Assembly: GCF_024223415.1 (NCBI RefSeq)
Contig: NZ_CP100500.1
Reading direction: 5' to 3' (one strand)
Source of the DNA: Escherichia coli
GTDB lineage: Bacteria; Pseudomonadota; Gammaproteobacteria; Enterobacterales; Enterobacteriaceae
Length of the DNA stretch: 64,000 nt
The position numbers were made by a program, and so were the translations under genes. Numbering within the stretch: position 1 is the first letter of the stretch; every line of letters begins with the position of its first letter. The notes below the pieces were generated by a model. That model worked only from the letters and a program-made list of their open reading frames with translations, was not told the DNA's origin and made no database searches. Shown piece by piece: positions 34,684-42,496 of the stretch.

Positions 34684-35278
34684 TTATGCTTTCCGTACGC
34701 CCGAGGAACTGGCATTTTTCAGAATAATATTATGCCCTGCTGGTGGCTTACCGTTATGCTTATTTTCTGCCTTCATGTTTCTGCGCTCCTGCTGTTTTTT
34801 CTTCATCTCATCCAGTCGCTTCCCCGCGTTCAACTGGTGCTCCTGTGTCACCTCCCCGCACGGATGGCCTTTCAGGTCGTAACGCACGCCACCAGCCATC
34901 AGGGAACGGTAATATCGCACTGAACTGACATAATACGCCAGCGTTGCGCGAAGCGCTCCCTGACCTAATGAAATACCTCTCGCAGTAATATCCTCCATCA
35001 GGTCATCAAATATGCCAACCTTAAGCGGTCTGGGCGATTCCTGGCTGAAAAGTTCAGGCCAGAGCGCGGCAAGGCGTTCAACGCGTCTGATATTTTTTTT
35101 CCGGCTCTTTTCTGATTTGCGTTTTGCTGCCGTCTTCTGTTGTGTTTTCTGCTCGCGGCTCTGCTTTTGCGCTGGTGTGGTTTTATCCGGCTGTTCAGCC
35201 TCCTGCGTCTTTTTCTGCGGTGTGCCGTATATGCCTTTTGGTTTTCGGTTAATGGTCAGCTTTGTCATGTTCTCCCCC
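34684..35278 (-). CDS. ProQ/FinO-domain RNA-binding protein with a lysine-rich N-terminal tail
   Basis: PRPLKVGIFDDL...LRATLAYYVSSVRYYRSL..GGVRYDLKGHPCGEVTQEH aligns with E. coli ProQ ARPLKIGIFQDL...LRSALRLYTSSWRYLYGV..GATRVDLDGNPCGELDEQH. The preferred start is MTKLTINRK at 35278, behind the RBS AGGGGGAG. The track ORF extends to 35364. Confidence 0.8.
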
Positions 35279-35347
35279 TTTGTGCTGTTCCACCAGCGGC
35301 ATCTGCTACCCCGTGTCGCTCCCGCTGGTGTCGTGTTTCCCCGCCTG

Positions 35348-35668
35348 TTAATAACCGTCATCATTTACGTTATCAGGGTAATCACGCCATATTTCATCAG
35401 TAAGCGACGGTAGCCCCATCTGTTGTATTGTCCTGTCTGCGGCCCTTCTGACTGCGTGAACATCATAACGGTTTTCAGGTATCGGGCGCTTTGCCTTCCT
35501 GATACATTCCCTTGCTCTCATTGCCGCAAGTTCTCTGTGCCTGTCTTCCTGAAGAGTAATCATCACATCCTGCCACCTTCTGGCAGCCCGTCGCCACAGT
35601 CCCCTGCTCTCGAGTTCTTCTGCTGTCGCGTCGCTTATTGTCCGGTTCTTCGGTGTGCTGTTGTTCAT
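35348..35668 (-). CDS. PerC-family (PerC/Pch-like) transcriptional regulator
   Basis: This is a 106-aa ORF. The N-terminal AEELESRGLWRRAARRW motif resembles the PerC signature. The call is made from memory of the family only. Confidence 0.55.
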   Translation of the reverse strand: MNNSTPKNRTISDATAEELESRGLWRRAARRWQDVMITLQEDRHRELAAMRARECIRKAKRPIPENRYDVHAVRRAADRTIQQMGLPSLTDEIWRDYPDNVNDDGY

Positions 35669-38261: not shown

Positions 38262-38462
38262 TTATTTTCCTGTCAGTGATTCCGGCTTTATTCCGGCGCG
38301 AATACAGGCTTCAGAAAAAAAAGCCAGAGAACCAATAACCTCATTATTTCTAAGGCGGCATTGCGATTTCACTTTCCCTTTATCCAGGAATATCAAAACG
38401 CGCCCCGTATAATCAGATGGCACATTAAGCACTACAGGTAAGTGCGCTTCATGATTATTCAT
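38262..38462 (-). CDS. Hypothetical 66-aa protein
   Basis: The start MNNHEAHLPV at 38462 lies behind the RBS CAGGAGGTGG and overlaps the upstream stop (ATGAATAA). The track ORF extends to 38531. Confidence 0.6.
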   Translation of the reverse strand: MNNHEAHLPVVLNVPSDYTGRVLIFLDKGKVKSQCRLRNNEVIGSLAFFSEACIRAGIKPESLTGK

Positions 38463-38898
38463 GGCTAACCACCTCCTGGAATTTTCTTCTGTAACGCGCC
38501 TCTGCCACATATTCAGCATAGTCCGACGCAATATTGAGAATATCGCTACCCGTTCCTGAATGTTCGGCGGTTTCCAGTAAAAAACATGCAGCTTTTACCA
38601 TGTCAGCAACACATAACAGCGCAATATCTGTATCTTCCGGTGTGCCATCAAATTCCTGTTTCAGGGCATTAAAACGATCATCACGCATAACCCCATATTC
38701 ACAATCAGCAATCAGGATGGCTTTGGCCTCATTCAGTGCCATATCAGCGGTAAGCTGTGCGTAGGCCAGCAAATGCGGGATTATTGCCCCTGTATATTCC
38801 GGCTCTCTGATAATGTGGTCGGATGTGTTGATTAAATAGTTTGTGCGAAAAATGCACCTGTAACCATCAGTTAACAACGGATATACAGGGGGGACCAT
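38455..38898 (-). CDS. Hypothetical protein (about 147 aa if started at MVPPVY; the true start is uncertain)
   Basis: The C-terminal ~130 aa have protein-like composition (..ALNEAKAILIADCEYGVMRDDRFNALKQEFDGTPEDTDIALLCVADMVKAACFLLETAEH..) and the stop is coupled to the next gene. No strong RBS precedes 38898. Confidence 0.5.
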   Translation of the reverse strand: MVPPVYPLLTDGYRCIFRTNYLINTSDHIIREPEYTGAIIPHLLAYAQLTADMALNEAKAILIADCEYGVMRDDRFNALKQEFDGTPEDTDIALLCVADMVKAACFLLETAEHSGTGSDILNIASDYAEYVAEARYRRKFQEVVSHE

Positions 38899-39681
38899 GA
38901 ATGATAAGGGGGTGCCGTTTGATGTGCTCCTGCAAAAGCTGAATGCTGCACGCGCCGCAAGGGAACGTGAGCGCATGAGTAATAACCCTGTCCCTCCTGA
39001 ATTACCTCGCCCTGAACATTTTCCGCTTGAGGATTTCATCAGGGGACGAATCCGAACAAAACGATAACCGCCGCCGTGATATGAGGCATCACGACGCAAT
39101 GCATTACAGGTGAGCACCATGAACAAATCCATATTATCCCCCACAGTTCTGGACGTAAACACAAAGCAGCGACAGATATTATTACGCGCCGTCATTAAAG
39201 CCAGACACGAGAAATTAAACCAAATCTTAAAATAAGATACGCCGCTACCGCTGTAAGTCTTCATCAGAAACAGAAAACGCCAGAGCAGATGAGCACGGAG
39301 GTAACTCTTTATGAAAATAAACGAATCAGGGGAAATTACCGAAGCCAGCGTGGTACGCCAGCGGAGGCGGGAACGACGGGTACGGCCCCCCGCGCCATCC
39401 GATAATTTCCCGCTTGAGCGCTTCATCAGTGAACGGCCCCGCATACGCTGGAACGGCACAACCCCATACCCCGAGGAGAGACAGACAAAAAACAAACAGC
39501 GATGATGAAATCTGGAGGCCAATACCATCACGCAGCCATCAGGAGATTGCTGACGCGCTTCCTGTTCGCTGGTGGCCTCGATGGTAATCACGCGCGGTTG
39601 TGCAGTGCTCAGGGCGATAAAACGCCACACAAAGGCCGTTTGTGTGTGCGCAAGGCGTGGGGTATGCTGTGTTCCAGCCAT
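38455..39681 (-). CDS. Icd-like (host cell-division inhibitor-like) N-terminus continuing without a stop into the downstream gene. This may not be a single real protein.
   Basis: A strong RBS AGGAG lies 7 nt before the ATG at 39681. The sequence MAGTQHTPRLAHTQTAFVWRFIALSTAQPRVITIEATSEQEARQQ resembles Icd-like proteins of P4-type elements. The following ~260 codons are R/S/C-rich and junk-like, yet stop-free. Confidence 0.35.
   Translation of the reverse strand: MAGTQHTPRLAHTQTAFVWRFIALSTAQPRVITIEATSEQEARQQSPDGCVMVLASRFHHRCLFFVCLSSGYGVVPFQRMRGRSLMKRSSGKLSDGAGGRTRRSRLRWRTTLASVISPDSFIFIKSYLRAHLLWRFLFLMKTYSGSGVSYFKIWFNFSCLALMTARNNICRCFVFTSRTVGDNMDLFMVLTCNALRRDASYHGGGYRFVRIRPLMKSSSGKCSGRGNSGGTGLLLMRSRSLAARAAFSFCRSTSNGTPLSFMVPPVYPLLTDGYRCIFRTNYLINTSDHIIREPEYTGAIIPHLLAYAQLTADMALNEAKAILIADCEYGVMRDDRFNALKQEFDGTPEDTDIALLCVADMVKAACFLLETAEHSGTGSDILNIASDYAEYVAEARYRRKFQEVVSHE
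38897..39067 (+). CDS. Candidate small ORF (56 aa), paralogous to 39311..39505
   Basis: A G-rich RBS (GGGGGG) precedes the ATG. It shares ..FPLE.FI..R.RIR with the second ORF. It is antisense to the long minus-strand frame. Confidence 0.3.
   Translation: MNDKGVPFDVLLQKLNAARAARERERMSNNPVPPELPRPEHFPLEDFIRGRIRTKR
39311..39505 (+). CDS. Candidate small ORF (64 aa), paralogous to 38897..39067
   Basis: The RBS GGAGG lies 8 nt before the ATG. It shares the NFPLERFISERPRIR block with the other ORF. Confidence 0.3.
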   Translation: MKINESGEITEASVVRQRRRERRVRPPAPSDNFPLERFISERPRIRWNGTTPYPEERQTKNKQR

Positions 39682-39808
39682 AATCGTTACTCCTGTTAAC
39701 GGTTTGGTTAGACGCCCTGCATGTGTGCCACCACTGCGGGGCGTTGTTTTTGTGGTGTCATTGGTATACATTGTCACCTTAATGGCATTATCACTACAGA
39801 GGTTTATC

Positions 39809-39985
39809 ATGTCAACCAATGACAACAAAAAAGAAAGATTTTCCGTACAACTACGCCTAGACGCAGATTTGTTCGAGCGTTTAAGTATTGCCATGAAAGA
39901 AGATGGCGACGATAACCGATCTGGATGGATCAAAAGGCTTTTACGACGCGAATTAGATAAACGCGGCATTGAGTCAAAAAGCTGA
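39809..39985 (+). CDS. Ribbon-helix-helix (Arc/MetJ/CopG-like) DNA-binding protein and candidate island repressor. It is the only convincing plus-strand gene in the island.
   Basis: MSTNDNKKERFSVQLRLDADLFERLSIAMKEDGDDNRSGWIKRLLRRELDKRG has the beta-strand/helix/helix pattern typical of RHH proteins. An AGAGG RBS precedes it, and a terminator follows at 40079-40107. Confidence 0.6.
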   Translation: MSTNDNKKERFSVQLRLDADLFERLSIAMKEDGDDNRSGWIKRLLRRELDKRGIESKS

Positions 39986-40078
39986 CAGCCAACCAGCAAG
40001 CCAGCACACTGATCACATTGCCCACCAGCCGCAAATGTGGCATTGTTGGTGATGCTTTTGTTTTCCCTTGTTCCCACT

Positions 40079-40107
40079 GGCGACCCTTTTGCGGTCGCCT
40101 TTGTTTT
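40079..40107 (+). terminator. Plus-strand rho-independent terminator downstream of the RHH gene
   Basis: GGCGACC-cttttgc-GGTCGCC hairpin followed by TTTGTTTT. Confidence 0.65.
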
Positions 40108-40203
40108 GCCTGTTATCCGGCAATTGTGGCGCTTCGCCACACGGTTTATATAACCCCACTGCTCAGATTCATTTTTTGCGCAGTAGGTTAATTGTTCGCA
40201 AGG

Positions 40204-40230
40204 GCGGCTCCTTATCGGGGCCGCTTTTTT
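40204..40230 (+). terminator. Second plus-strand terminator, possibly the 3' end of a small antisense RNA
   Basis: GCGGCTCC-ttatc-GGGGCCGC hairpin followed by TTTTTT. It is not functional in the minus orientation, where no U-run follows. Confidence 0.55.
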
Positions 40231-40256
40231 CGTGTTTGTCATATCTGTGATACCCG

Positions 40257-40463
40257 TTAAGCAGCCGTTCCGCGTGCTTCCTGTTCGCGTTCTTTCTGCC
40301 AGGCCAACACATCATCCTCATACCATCCGCGACGGCGTAAACCAACGCGAAAACCCTGCGGAAATTCTCCGGCGTTGATCATGCTTTGCAGCGTGCTGTC
40401 TGCCTTGATGTGGATAATTTTTTTTACTTCCTGGCGAAAGATAATTTTTCTGATTGCTTCCAT
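40257..40463 (-). CDS. alpA: AlpA-family regulator/excisionase (MerR-type wHTH)
   Basis: This is a 68-aa ORF. The sequence ...STLQSMINAGEFPQGFRVGLRRRGWYEDDVLAWQ is typical of the AlpA/prophage CP4-57 regulatory family. Confidence 0.8.
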   Translation of the reverse strand: MEAIRKIIFRQEVKKIIHIKADSTLQSMINAGEFPQGFRVGLRRRGWYEDDVLAWQKEREQEARGTAA

Positions 40464-40481
40464 CGTGATTTACCTTGTGAA

Positions 40482-40498
40482 TCCGGTGTATTCCGGTG
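40482..40498. repeat. Two TCCGGTG motifs 10 bp apart just upstream of alpA
   Basis: The sequence is aTCCGGTGtatTCCGGTGac. The same heptamer is phased at 10 bp three times at 42386-42412, next to the att core. Confidence 0.6.
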
Positions 40499-40596
40499 AC
40501 AAATACGGTAAATCATCGGATATGGGTAAAAACAGTTCCCACCGTTTTTAAACGGTATACACCGTTTTTTATATTGATGATTTGAAATGGAATTAT

Positions 40597-40619
40597 AAAA
40601 AAAGCGGCATTTCTGCCGC
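40597..40619 (-). terminator. Rho-independent terminator after the int-orf83 unit
   Basis: The minus strand reads GCGGCA-gaaa-TGCCGC followed by TTTTTTT. Confidence 0.75.
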
Positions 40620-40630
40620 TTCCAGGATTG

Positions 40631-40882
40631 TTACCGCCATTTTTTGGGCCTGCCTCCGATCTTCATAGATGCCGGACGTACGACCTTATCAATACTTACC
40701 GCCAGATTTCTGGAAGCGCCACGGGATACCAGAAAATCTACTACCTGTTTTTTTGATGGGGCCGTCGTCCTGTCCTCCGGATCGTAGGTTGACCAAAATT
40801 CATGCTGAACCATCAGGGCCAGTTGCAGCCCGTCGCAATTGCATCTGATATTTTTTTGCATCTTAACGGTTTCATGTTTCAC
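40631..40882 (-). CDS. Hypothetical 83-aa protein downstream of int
   Basis: The ORF ends in a basic C-terminus (GGRPKKWR). I do not recognise the family. Confidence 0.5.
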   Translation of the reverse strand: MKHETVKMQKNIRCNCDGLQLALMVQHEFWSTYDPEDRTTAPSKKQVVDFLVSRGASRNLAVSIDKVVRPASMKIGGRPKKWR

Positions 40883-40959
40883 GGCCTTGTCGTTAAATTT
40901 GATGCAATTATACGACGGTTTTACATGGTTTTCGTAGTTTTTACTGGTTTTCTGTACAG

Positions 40960-42219
40960 CTACACGGCTCGGATACCCCTTTTACCACTGGCGAGGGTTA
41001 CGCCCGTCGCCGCAGCCTCGACAAATTCGCCCCACCAGCGCATCAGCACGATGCGTTTTTCTATGTAGTTGCTCCGGTTGTATGCCCGTCTAACTTCGTT
41101 GGTGTCGACGTGGGCAAGTGCCGCCTCTATTACGTCCGGCTCGAATCCTTCCTCGTTCGCTGCTGTGCTGAATATGGCGCGTAATCCATGAGACACCAGC
41201 ACGCCAGCGAATCCCATACGCCGCAATGCTGCGTTAGCTGTCTGGCTGTTCATCGGCTGCTGTGGGTCTTTCAGACTTGGGAAAACGTAATTGCGGTGGT
41301 GGCTGATTGGTTTCATGGCCTCCAGCACCGCCATAGCCTGACCGGAAAGCGGGATAACGTGATCCCTGCGCATCTTCATGCGTCCGGCAGGTATCGTCCA
41401 TTGCTTCGCGTCCAGGTTGATTTCATCCCACCGCGTTGATGACGCTTCGGCGGGACGGGTTACGGTCAGTAACTGCCATTCAATCAGTAATCTGGTCTGC
41501 CGTTCTGTTGCCGATACTGATAAAGCCTGCATAAGCTCGGGCAGCTGTTCGGGGCGGATTGTTGGCATATGTTTTTTTACAGGTGAGGGAAACGCCTTAC
41601 GCACATTCATAGCCGGATTGGCATCAATCAGCCCACTGTTGGCGGCGTAATCCATTACCTCATTAACGCGCTGTAAAACCCGCTTGAGTGTTTCCAGGTT
41701 GCCGCGCTCCTTGATGGGGGTAAGCACTTCAACGAACCTTCGGGCGGTGAGGGTATCTATTGGCGTGTTGCCGATGAACGGGAATACATATTTATCCAGC
41801 GAACGCCAGATGTCTTTAATCGTGTTGGGGGCCAGATTCTGGCTGATTTTCACCTGGTACCATGCCGCCGCCACATTTTCGAACGTGTTCCCTTGTCTTC
41901 GGGCCTCTGTCTCTCTTTTTTGCCTCTCGTGGTCCTGCGGGTCAGTTCCGGCACTGATTAACGTCCTGTACTCGCTACGGCGTTTTCTGGCATCAGCCAG
42001 GGAAACATCTTCAAGCGATCCAAAACTCAGCAATATTCTTTTTTTGTCCGATGGTCGGTAGTAGGAAAATCTCCAGAGTTTTGATCCAGACGGTTTGACC
42101 AGGAGAAAAAGCCCTCCGCCGTCCTGCAGGGTGTACTCCTTTTGCGCTGGTCTGGCTGCTTTGATCTGCACTGTGGTTAATGGGTGTGTTTTTCTCGCCA
42201 TATGTCTATGATTCCACAC
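40960..42219 (-). CDS. int: Tyrosine integrase, P4/CP4-57 (DUF4102 N-terminal arm-binding) type
   Basis: The N-terminus reads LTTVQIKAARPAQKEYTLQDGGGLFLLVKPSGSKLWRFSY. The catalytic region contains HGLRAIFST..ALAHV and RAYNRSNY. An alternative start MARKTHP lies at 42201. The gene is adjacent to the tRNA. Confidence 0.9.
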   Translation of the reverse strand: MWNHRHMARKTHPLTTVQIKAARPAQKEYTLQDGGGLFLLVKPSGSKLWRFSYYRPSDKKRILLSFGSLEDVSLADARKRRSEYRTLISAGTDPQDHERQKRETEARRQGNTFENVAAAWYQVKISQNLAPNTIKDIWRSLDKYVFPFIGNTPIDTLTARRFVEVLTPIKERGNLETLKRVLQRVNEVMDYAANSGLIDANPAMNVRKAFPSPVKKHMPTIRPEQLPELMQALSVSATERQTRLLIEWQLLTVTRPAEASSTRWDEINLDAKQWTIPAGRMKMRRDHVIPLSGQAMAVLEAMKPISHHRNYVFPSLKDPQQPMNSQTANAALRRMGFAGVLVSHGLRAIFSTAANEEGFEPDVIEAALAHVDTNEVRRAYNRSNYIEKRIVLMRWWGEFVEAAATGVTLASGKRGIRAV

Positions 42220-42419: not shown

Positions 42420-42496
42420 TGGTCGGCACGAGAGGATTTGAACCTCCGACCCCCGACACCCCATGACGGTGCGCTACCAGGCTGCGCTACGTGCCG
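42420..42496 (-). tRNA. proL: tRNA-Pro (anticodon GGG)
   Basis: The minus strand reads CGGCACGTAGCGCAGCCTGGTAGCGCACCGTCATGGGGTGTCGGGGGTCGGAGGTTCAAATCCTCTCGTGCCGACCA. It is 77 nt with cloverleaf-compatible arms and an encoded CCA. Confidence 0.92.

Follow-up and report, generated by a model that had tools for sequence, protein, structure and literature searches.

What holds a Gram-negative phage-inducible chromosomal island (PICI) quiescent, and can the answer lie in a short segment whose features run against all other island functions? Gram-negative PICIs have been described as unidirectionally transcribed and AlpA-driven, with a global repressor that is 'unclear' (PMC6092414), and immunity RNAs are mentioned in only 'several' PICIs (PMC10111431). 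The question is raised by a 64,000-nucleotide stretch of the Escherichia coli chromosome (contig NZ_CP100500.1; hereafter, the window), in which an island carries, next to its minus-strand alpA gene, a plus-strand gene for a small ribbon-helix-helix (RHH) protein, followed by two plus-strand terminators, T1 and T2. A preliminary description of this DNA likened the layout to repressor-plus-antisense-RNA immunity or copy-control modules. On balance, and with modest confidence, we favor a more specific reading, namely, that the segment is a P4-type regulatory (immunity-type) cassette of an EcCICFT073-type PICI in which the RHH protein would act as the repressor.

The window is identifiable as E. 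coli chromosome from micF, yejM and a gene for tRNA-Pro(GGG) (42420-42496), and an island of ~11 kb, integrated at this tRNA gene, adjoins it. The integrase gene (40960-42219, minus strand), alpA (40257-40463, minus strand) and the primase/helicase genes are transcribed in one direction, the attachment site is specific, and terminase, portal, tail and lysis genes are lacking, as expected of Gram-negative PICIs. The gene order is that of EcCICFT073, the model Gram-negative PICI, and the island is an EcCICFT073-type PICI at tRNA-Pro. The alpA gene encodes an AlpA/Vis-type helix-turn-helix activator and excisionase-like protein, the counterpart of P4 vis (ORF88); it matches the PHROG 'excisionase and transcriptional regulator' (E = 5.5e-7) and Pfam Phage_AlpA (E = 0.0035, below the cut-off of that family), and RefSeq labels the product as an AlpA family regulator. 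The exact 601-nucleotide segment is found in only 3 of 5426 complete E. coli genomes, and its parts are present in more than 1000.

The RHH gene is an open reading frame (ORF) of 58 codons (39809-39985, plus strand), with 96 homologues, mostly of 56-62 amino acids, in many genera of Enterobacterales; the 58-amino-acid protein shows family-like conservation and a confident strand-helix-helix fold of ~45 residues. In 120 related loci, the same slot is always occupied by a small plus-strand gene with the RHH pattern, and the genes in this slot represent at least six very different, unrelated-looking sequence types. The order int-alpA, RHH on the plus strand, icd-like-primase recurs in E. coli, Klebsiella, Morganella and Raoultella as well as in EcCICFT073 itself, where RHH genes also fill the slot, and in Klebsiella and Morganella satellites, an RHH gene of the window type lies between the AlpA gene and the small genes leading to the primase. 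The recurrence of the slot, the types and the context across genera implies that the RHH gene is real, as the preliminary description had held. The 58-codon ORF is thus widely conserved, and it is a true gene that runs opposite to every other function of the island.

That description had also called it the only convincing plus-strand gene of the island, which appears doubtful. In relatives, another small basic ORF, 'ORF2', often comes after the RHH gene, and the motif of its family (FALEQFL/FALEDFV) resembles the ends of two plus-strand ORFs in the window, at 38897-39067 (ending in FPLEDFI) and 39311-39505 (ending in FPLERFI). The segment around these two ORFs is rare (at least 80% of 38400-39700 is present in only 9 genomes), and the long minus-strand frame discussed next is open throughout it. 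On the minus strand, a weak hairpin that resembles a terminator, GCTGGTTGGCTGTCAGC with TTTTTG after it (39981-39997), overlaps the RHH stop codon; by reading of the alignment, its U-run is gone in several relatives.

The RHH gene lies antisense within a minus-strand ORF of 595 codons (38455-40242, 1788 nucleotides), which we call eta-like. It starts with an ATG at 40242, 15 nucleotides after the alpA stop, crosses T2, T1 and the RHH gene in antisense, and is in frame with an Icd-like (P4 Kil-type) domain (39508-39633, minus strand; NCBIfam NF033153, E = 3.8e-14, residues 204-245). RefSeq annotates it as a 595-amino-acid 'host cell division inhibitor Icd-like protein' (WP_244567439.1), in which the 42-residue Icd-like segment is the only recognizable domain. 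What the preliminary description called the alpA-proximal leader is no untranslated leader but the 5' part of this frame, which is strongly selected to remain open. Relatives have a Shine-Dalgarno sequence and an ATG that overlap the region of the alpA stop and open directly into T1 (peptide ..KTKAT..). A conserved downstream box was found in 103 loci; in 100 of them, the distance to that box is 75, 78, 81 or 84 nucleotides, and the indels are multiples of three.

The constraint on this frame is strong. Among 84 distinct 540-nucleotide segments, 77 are stop-free in the eta-like frame, which contains 25 stops in total, compared with 586 and 973 in the two other minus-strand frames. Within the plus-strand genes, codon contexts that would give rise to stops on the minus strand are all but missing: a codon ending in T comes before His or Gln in 2 of 222 cases (~20% expected), and one ending in a pyrimidine comes before Tyr in 2 of 37. 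The frame continues as far as the Icd-like motif in 69 of 93 loci, and in Morganella it is open across ~590 nucleotides of unrelated sequence. In Yersinia, where a copy of the RHH gene lacks flanking alpA and primase genes, the frame is broken 5-6 times. The encoded residues vary, with stretches that are frameshifted and then restored (GSPVGTRENKS vs GRQWIHTKLER). Since the frame is kept open while its amino acid sequence is not conserved, selection acts on the translatability of the eta-like frame, not on the protein. A modest excess of C over G on the minus strand extends from near 39671; together with the selection for openness, it is an indirect sign that translation of this ORF may mask a Rho-dependent terminator, as translation of eta does in P4. 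RefSeq is inconsistent on this DNA: other genomes have small plus-strand genes annotated there, or pseudogenes of the 'ash family'.

The arrangement is that of the vis-eta/kil region of phage P4. In P4, a constitutive promoter lies inside eta, its transcript ends early via the CI RNA, and Kil is a truncated form of Eta (PMC10111431); it has also been published that translation of eta protects the read-through transcript from premature termination. The P4 ORF that extends from the ORF88 (vis) stop (8761-8168, minus strand, in X51522; 197 codons) matches Phage_ASH (E = 3.8e-23) and then the Icd-like family (E = 1.2e-20, residues 144-191), so P4 Kil is an Icd-like protein. The sequence encoding the P4 CI RNA falls within the 'Ash' family. 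The island shares with P4 the AlpA/Vis-type gene, a long ORF at its stop that is kept open, the in-frame Icd-like (Kil) segment and the primase/helicase operon; a promoter candidate inside the long ORF, recognized by a consensus match, would correspond to the promoter inside eta. The island differs in that Rfam yields no match of the cassette to C4 or isrK at E up to 10, the cassette ORF has no Pfam match to Phage_ASH and continues for ~350 codons beyond the Icd-like domain, and the island has the opposite-strand RHH gene and the plus-strand terminators, to which relatives add a small promoter-terminator unit. A blastn search with 39600-40500 against the phage database yielded only a 59-nucleotide match to a Morganella phage and no match to P4. 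Judged by this shared organization, the layout of the segment is homologous to the P4 vis-eta/kil region, with the RHH gene in the position of the P4 immunity determinant; to this extent, the proposed immunity layout stands, although the promoter that was part of it does not and T2 may be an operon terminator.

The terminators also bear signs of function on the plus strand. T1 (40079-40107, plus strand) consists of a stem, 40079-40085/40093-40099, followed by TTTGTTTT at 40100-40107, and T2 (40204-40230, plus strand) of a stem, 40204-40211/40217-40224, followed by T6 at 40225-40230. A scan of 3 kb found nine terminator-like sites, compared with 3.3 +/- 2.0 in shuffled sequences, with T2 and T1 listed first; on the minus strand, no U-run follows either hairpin, so the earlier claims that both are plus-strand terminators and that neither can terminate minus-strand transcription hold. 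The exact T1 pattern was present at one locus only in species-representative genomes, and viral and metagenome collections were used instead; the T1 alignment was built from loci retrieved through an unrelated motif and not selected on T1. In this alignment, 99.4% of the cells are paired, and the covariation score of 0.126 (0.053 in shuffles) was reached by none of 500 shuffles. A second allele, GGCCACC...GGTGGCC in place of GGCGACC...GGTCGCC, involves a two-sided CG to GC switch, three one-sided variants yield G·U pairs, and Klebsiella T1 (GGCGGCC...GGCCGCC) has a further A-U to G-C change. T2 occurs as two stem alleles, one of them longer by a base pair through an insertion in each arm, and has several C-to-U type variants; all 16 of its variants fold better on the plus strand (mean -13.9 vs -9.6 kcal/mol). 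Because of these compensatory and G·U changes and the better plus-strand folds, T1 and T2 are taken to be selected as plus-strand RNA hairpins.

At the other end of the RHH gene, a PLE-like promoter candidate, TTGACA-17-GATAAT (39815..39787, minus strand; 11 of 12 consensus matches in the scan), faces the Icd-like and replication genes, and its -35 element overlaps the RHH start codon; its TGTCAA is invariant in relatives, but is coding as well. The promoter region is bracketed by a 24-nucleotide inverted repeat, a candidate operator, with arms at 39748-39771 and 39809-39832 that are 83% complementary and, by reading of the alignment, appear to co-vary in Raoultella and Klebsiella relatives; CCAATGACA and TGTCATTGG, in the region 39740-39840, are candidate half-sites. 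The right arm of the repeat coincides with the first eight RHH codons, and the repeat gives near-identical starts in the two directions, MSTNDNKK for the RHH protein and, on the minus strand, MYTNDTTK from an ATG at 39771 that shares the frame of the Icd-like segment. Just upstream of the RHH promoter region lies a third plus-strand terminator-like element, 'T0' (39712-39751), with the hairpin ACGCCC...GGGCGT followed by TGTTTTT; it is kept in E. coli, Raoultella, Klebsiella, Morganella and Yersinia relatives with, by eye, compensatory stem changes.

Between the two terminators, the preliminary description had placed a sigma70-like promoter and an RNA of ~70 nucleotides. The letters are there (TTGTGG at 40124-40129, a 17-nucleotide spacer and TATATA at 40147-40152), but the promoter is not credible as described: TTGTGG matches the consensus in three of six positions, TATATA lacks the final T, and the site is absent from the list of promoter-like sites from the scan, which are not enriched locally (3 found vs 3.7 expected). 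A different signal emerges two bases to the right of TATATA when 45 distinct versions of the module, collected from contigs of viral and metagenomic origin and from E. coli genomes, are compared. There, an extended -10 element, TGATATAAT, is present in 43 of the 45 versions and TGATATAAC in one, amid flanking bases that vary among relatives; EcCICFT073 carries a perfect copy, in the segment 1379713-1380860 of the CFT073 genome, NC_004431. Because TGATATAAT lies ~70 nucleotides before the T2 U-run, a transcript of this length is a reasonable prediction for relatives. Its extent in the window, set by this spacing, would be 40161-40231 on the plus strand, complementary to approximately codons 4-27 of the eta-like ORF, with a predicted fold of -24.4 kcal/mol (z = -2.5).

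Other candidates for structure or function in this part were rejected. The perfect palindrome at 40125-40141, considered as an operator or RNA hairpin, has only its 5' arm, GGCAATTGTGGCGCTTC, conserved, and the 3' arm varies without compensation; no other site in the window complements the conserved AGGTTAATTGTTC with up to three mismatches, as a trans target would; and no consistent plus-strand small ORF was found in modules 1 and 2 (the parts of the gap that end with T1 and T2, respectively), where the frames differ between alleles. A direct repeat on the plus strand consists of GCAAATGTGGC (40031-40041) and GCAATTGTGGC (40120-40130). The repeat may be bound by a protein; its second copy is the conserved 5' half of this 'palindrome', which precedes the -10 element.

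Both the repression by RHH and the function of an antisense RNA are inferred from these sequence patterns, and the cassette could work as follows. The RHH protein would bind the inverted repeat around 39748-39832 and repress the internal PLE-like promoter (39815..39787) that would drive the icd-like and replication genes, thereby keeping the island quiescent, and would probably also repress its own overlapping weak promoter. T1 would halt RHH transcription before it enters alpA and int in antisense, with help from T2. Upon induction, AlpA-activated transcription from upstream of alpA would read through the cassette and override the block, while ribosomes on the eta-like ORF would shield the transcript from premature termination, as for P4 eta. 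In relatives, the unit of the extended -10 element and T2 would make an RNA of ~70 nucleotides antisense to the eta-like ORF, which could damp leaky read-through by a translation block or by cleavage or termination.

Several observations weigh against this cassette reading, some of which concern the RHH protein and its promoters. The window protein remains below the cut-offs of both Pfam RHH_1 (15.3 bits, cut-off 20.5, E = 0.02) and the NCBIfam YlcI/YnfO family NF041551 (17.2 bits, cut-off 30); models of the NikR N-terminal domain match it with E = 1.2e-3, and a PDB sequence profile search with the RHH alignment gave nothing significant, so that a fold search was used instead. As relatives hold true YlcI/YnfO genes in the same slot, the window gene is best described, judging from these comparisons, as a positional analogue of YlcI/YnfO rather than a member, and as RHH by predicted fold. 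The promoter of the RHH gene itself, TTGTTT-17-TACATT as read from the sequence and alignment, is weakly defined, and the -10 element of the PLE-like site varies in other genera. Extended to all RHH types, the inverted repeat scores a mean of 12.6 of 20, compared with 11.6 in shuffles, in a comparison where the script mis-called some start codons. Additionally, the loci of relatives were gathered by exact-pattern searches and are mosaics that share modules via recombination, so that the locus counts overstate independence.

The remaining adverse points concern the antisense RNA, and most of them feed the alternative that survives best, namely, that the RHH gene is real without any dedicated small RNA, T2 being a back-up terminator or insulator that, together with T1, shields alpA and int against convergent transcription, and the -10 element a relic or a source of promoter interference only. 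We consider this possible, short of probable. The window's element, TTATATAAC (40146-40154, plus strand), reads TTaTATAAC where relatives have TGaTATAAT; no other version has lost the TG as well as the final T, and the scan reports no promoter at this site. One class of relatives joins the RHH 3' untranslated region (UTR) straight to the T2 segment without a promoter, and therefore T2 can serve as a plain operon terminator. Rfam searches, of the whole window at gathering scores and of 39000-41000 at E up to 10, returned no credible match for the segment. Within the predicted RNA, the 5' part varies most, and the 5' hairpin considered there was rejected, with one-sided changes that break pairing uncompensated and no convincing covariation. 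In EcCICFT073, moreover, the predicted pairing partner of the RNA is an internal stretch of the eta-like ORF rather than its start. The retention of TGATATAAT in 43 of 45 variants amid varying neighbors is, however, hard to square with a relic, and T1, only 100 nucleotides upstream of T2, is already a strong terminator. Our assessment of these patterns is that the ~70-nucleotide RNA is plausible in relatives and doubtful in the window, where it is probably not made at useful levels; since its promoter lost the TG and the final T, T2 is probably mainly a back-up terminator there. Thus, the near-invariant element of relatives upholds the idea of the antisense RNA, and the two critical mutations undermine it for the window. 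The literature searches returned no expression data for plus-strand RNAs of this cassette.

A second alternative, which we consider doubtful, assigns the antisense role to the 3' end of the RHH mRNA (module 1 with T1), whole or processed, which would pair with the start of the eta-like ORF. Module 1, the conserved 3' UTR of the RHH transcript (39986-40078, plus strand), has a core (40008-40078) composed of an invariant TTGCCCACCAGC box, a hypervariable stretch and a U-rich stretch, a combination that resembles the specificity regions of antisense control RNAs. The hypervariable stretch after TTGCCCACCAGC spans 25-30 nucleotides and falls into at least six discrete types of unrelated sequence, which appear shuffled from island to island; the box together with the discrete types forms a pattern reminiscent of specificity regions. 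The module up to T1 (~40008-40107) is the widely recurring part of the gap in E. coli, in the same orientation, and is far more widespread than module 2: with the gap as query, any match is found in 1282 of 5426 genomes and at least 80% of the gap (both modules) in 223. Most relatives have the eta-like ORF beginning 6 nucleotides beyond the T1 U-run, and about half of the loci have a Shine-Dalgarno sequence and an ATG immediately after the alpA stop, 9 nucleotides before AAAACAAAG. Against this stand the largest class of loci, with no start codon next to T1; relatives in which the interior of module 1 is wholly absent and T1 directly follows; the window itself, where the eta-like ORF starts 135 nucleotides further on, beyond T2; and the variable part of module 1, which by reading of the alignment has no consistent secondary structure.

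It is improbable, in our judgment, that the RHH protein is not an island regulator at all and is instead an orphan antitoxin-like or accessory regulator, acting for instance on genes of the host or helper, that happens to lie in a variable 'dynamic zone', although the same RHH protein occurs in Yersinia by a Gp49/HTH_37 pair in a context resembling an integrative and conjugative element, and relatives pair the RHH gene with the small basic ORF2. The window has no toxin partner; whatever the RHH type or genus, the gene keeps its slot, its orientation and its overlap with the promoter region; and its start overlaps the -35 element of a promoter-like site that faces the replication operon. Finally, that the region simply encodes the RefSeq 595-amino-acid protein, with the plus-strand features as by-products, is very improbable: the frame is annotated, open over 1788 nucleotides and strongly kept open in relatives, but its one recognizable domain spans 42 residues, segments with frameshift and compensation leave its amino acid sequence unconserved, the plus-strand RHH has family-like conservation and a confident fold, and G·U-type substitutions favor the plus-strand hairpins.

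If the RHH protein does act as the repressor of this cassette, a broader proposal can be ventured, one that we hold tentatively and would not expect to be borne out in full: opposite-strand RHH genes may be the missing immunity repressors of Gram-negative PICIs and many P4-like satellites, replacing the CI RNA; their interchangeable alleles may define immunity groups; each would be dual-coded antisense in an eta-like ORF whose translation overrides repression; and a short antisense RNA or the RHH 3' UTR would serve as a second lock. The RHH gene, present in EcCICFT073, offers a concrete repressor candidate for PICIs described without a clear repressor (PMC6092414), and the proposal, if true, would link PICI control to the eta/kil logic of P4. 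The genes themselves are not new, and in CFT073 the small plus-strand genes are already in the RefSeq annotation; new are the reading of them as a replacement for CI and the selected antisense overlap with the eta-like frame. Literature searches found nothing on the RHH or YlcI/YnfO gene in a repressor role in PICIs or P4-like islands, and nothing relevant on RHH proteins or small RNAs in these islands or on YlcI/YnfO function. The gene pair is a clean natural antisense overlap, with one frame selected for protein and the other for translatability alone. The overlap also bears on annotation, as RefSeq calls the 595-amino-acid 'Icd-like' protein in some genomes and the small plus-strand genes in others.

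Outside the P4 group, the likenesses are functional. In the copy control of plasmid R1, a CopB repressor is combined with the CopA antisense RNA and the tap leader peptide coupled to repA. By analogy, the island would have an upstream read-through promoter, an internal promoter shut by a small repressor and a terminator-bearing antisense RNA against a leader ORF whose translation the replication genes need; there is no sequence relationship, the island repressor gene is on the opposite strand inside the leader ORF, and that ORF has hundreds of codons and is fused in frame to Kil. The CopG/RNAII system of pMV158 differs in that copG is co-transcribed with repB, with no homology beyond the RHH fold. 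We regard R1 CopB/CopA/tap and pMV158 CopG/RNAII as the closest functional analogies and claim membership in neither. In immI of P1/P7 (c4 antisense RNA - icd - ant), the operon is headed by an Icd-type gene that must be translated for the operon to be expressed, and some island relatives carry AntA/AntB genes by alpA; the C4 RNA, however, is a same-strand product with its target sites upstream, on which it acts in trans, and the island has no C4 match. The Stl/Rpr repressors of Gram-positive PICIs likewise lie in opposite or divergent orientation between the integration and replication sides (PMC6092414), but belong to an unrelated protein class, and the island RHH gene is embedded antisense in a translated ORF.

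The likeness to FinP/FinO concerns another gene of the island. As the preliminary description had noted, a ProQ/FinO-domain protein is encoded on the same element (34684-35364, minus strand; Pfam ProQ, E = 2.1e-26), between the PerC and capsid genes, and antisense-oriented RNAs with GC-rich hairpins and U-tails would be expected from the cassette; the difference is that EcCICFT073 has the RNA elements and no ProQ/FinO gene at the corresponding position. A link of the ProQ/FinO protein to the hairpin-ended RNAs is a candidate only. The other minus-strand genes of the island include a small ORF after the integrase gene, the 'Icd-like' coding sequence, genes for DUF4222, a RepA-type helicase, SSB and PerC, and genes for the lambda-type capsid protein E and decoration protein D, as in most reference PICIs. 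Upstream of alpA (40464-40630), the scan found a minus-strand terminator (40623-40600), and reading of the sequence revealed two AAAACGGTG repeats around a GGTATACACC palindrome as well as CACCGGAAT/CACCGGATT repeats; these repeats and the palindrome are candidate sites of AlpA autoregulation.

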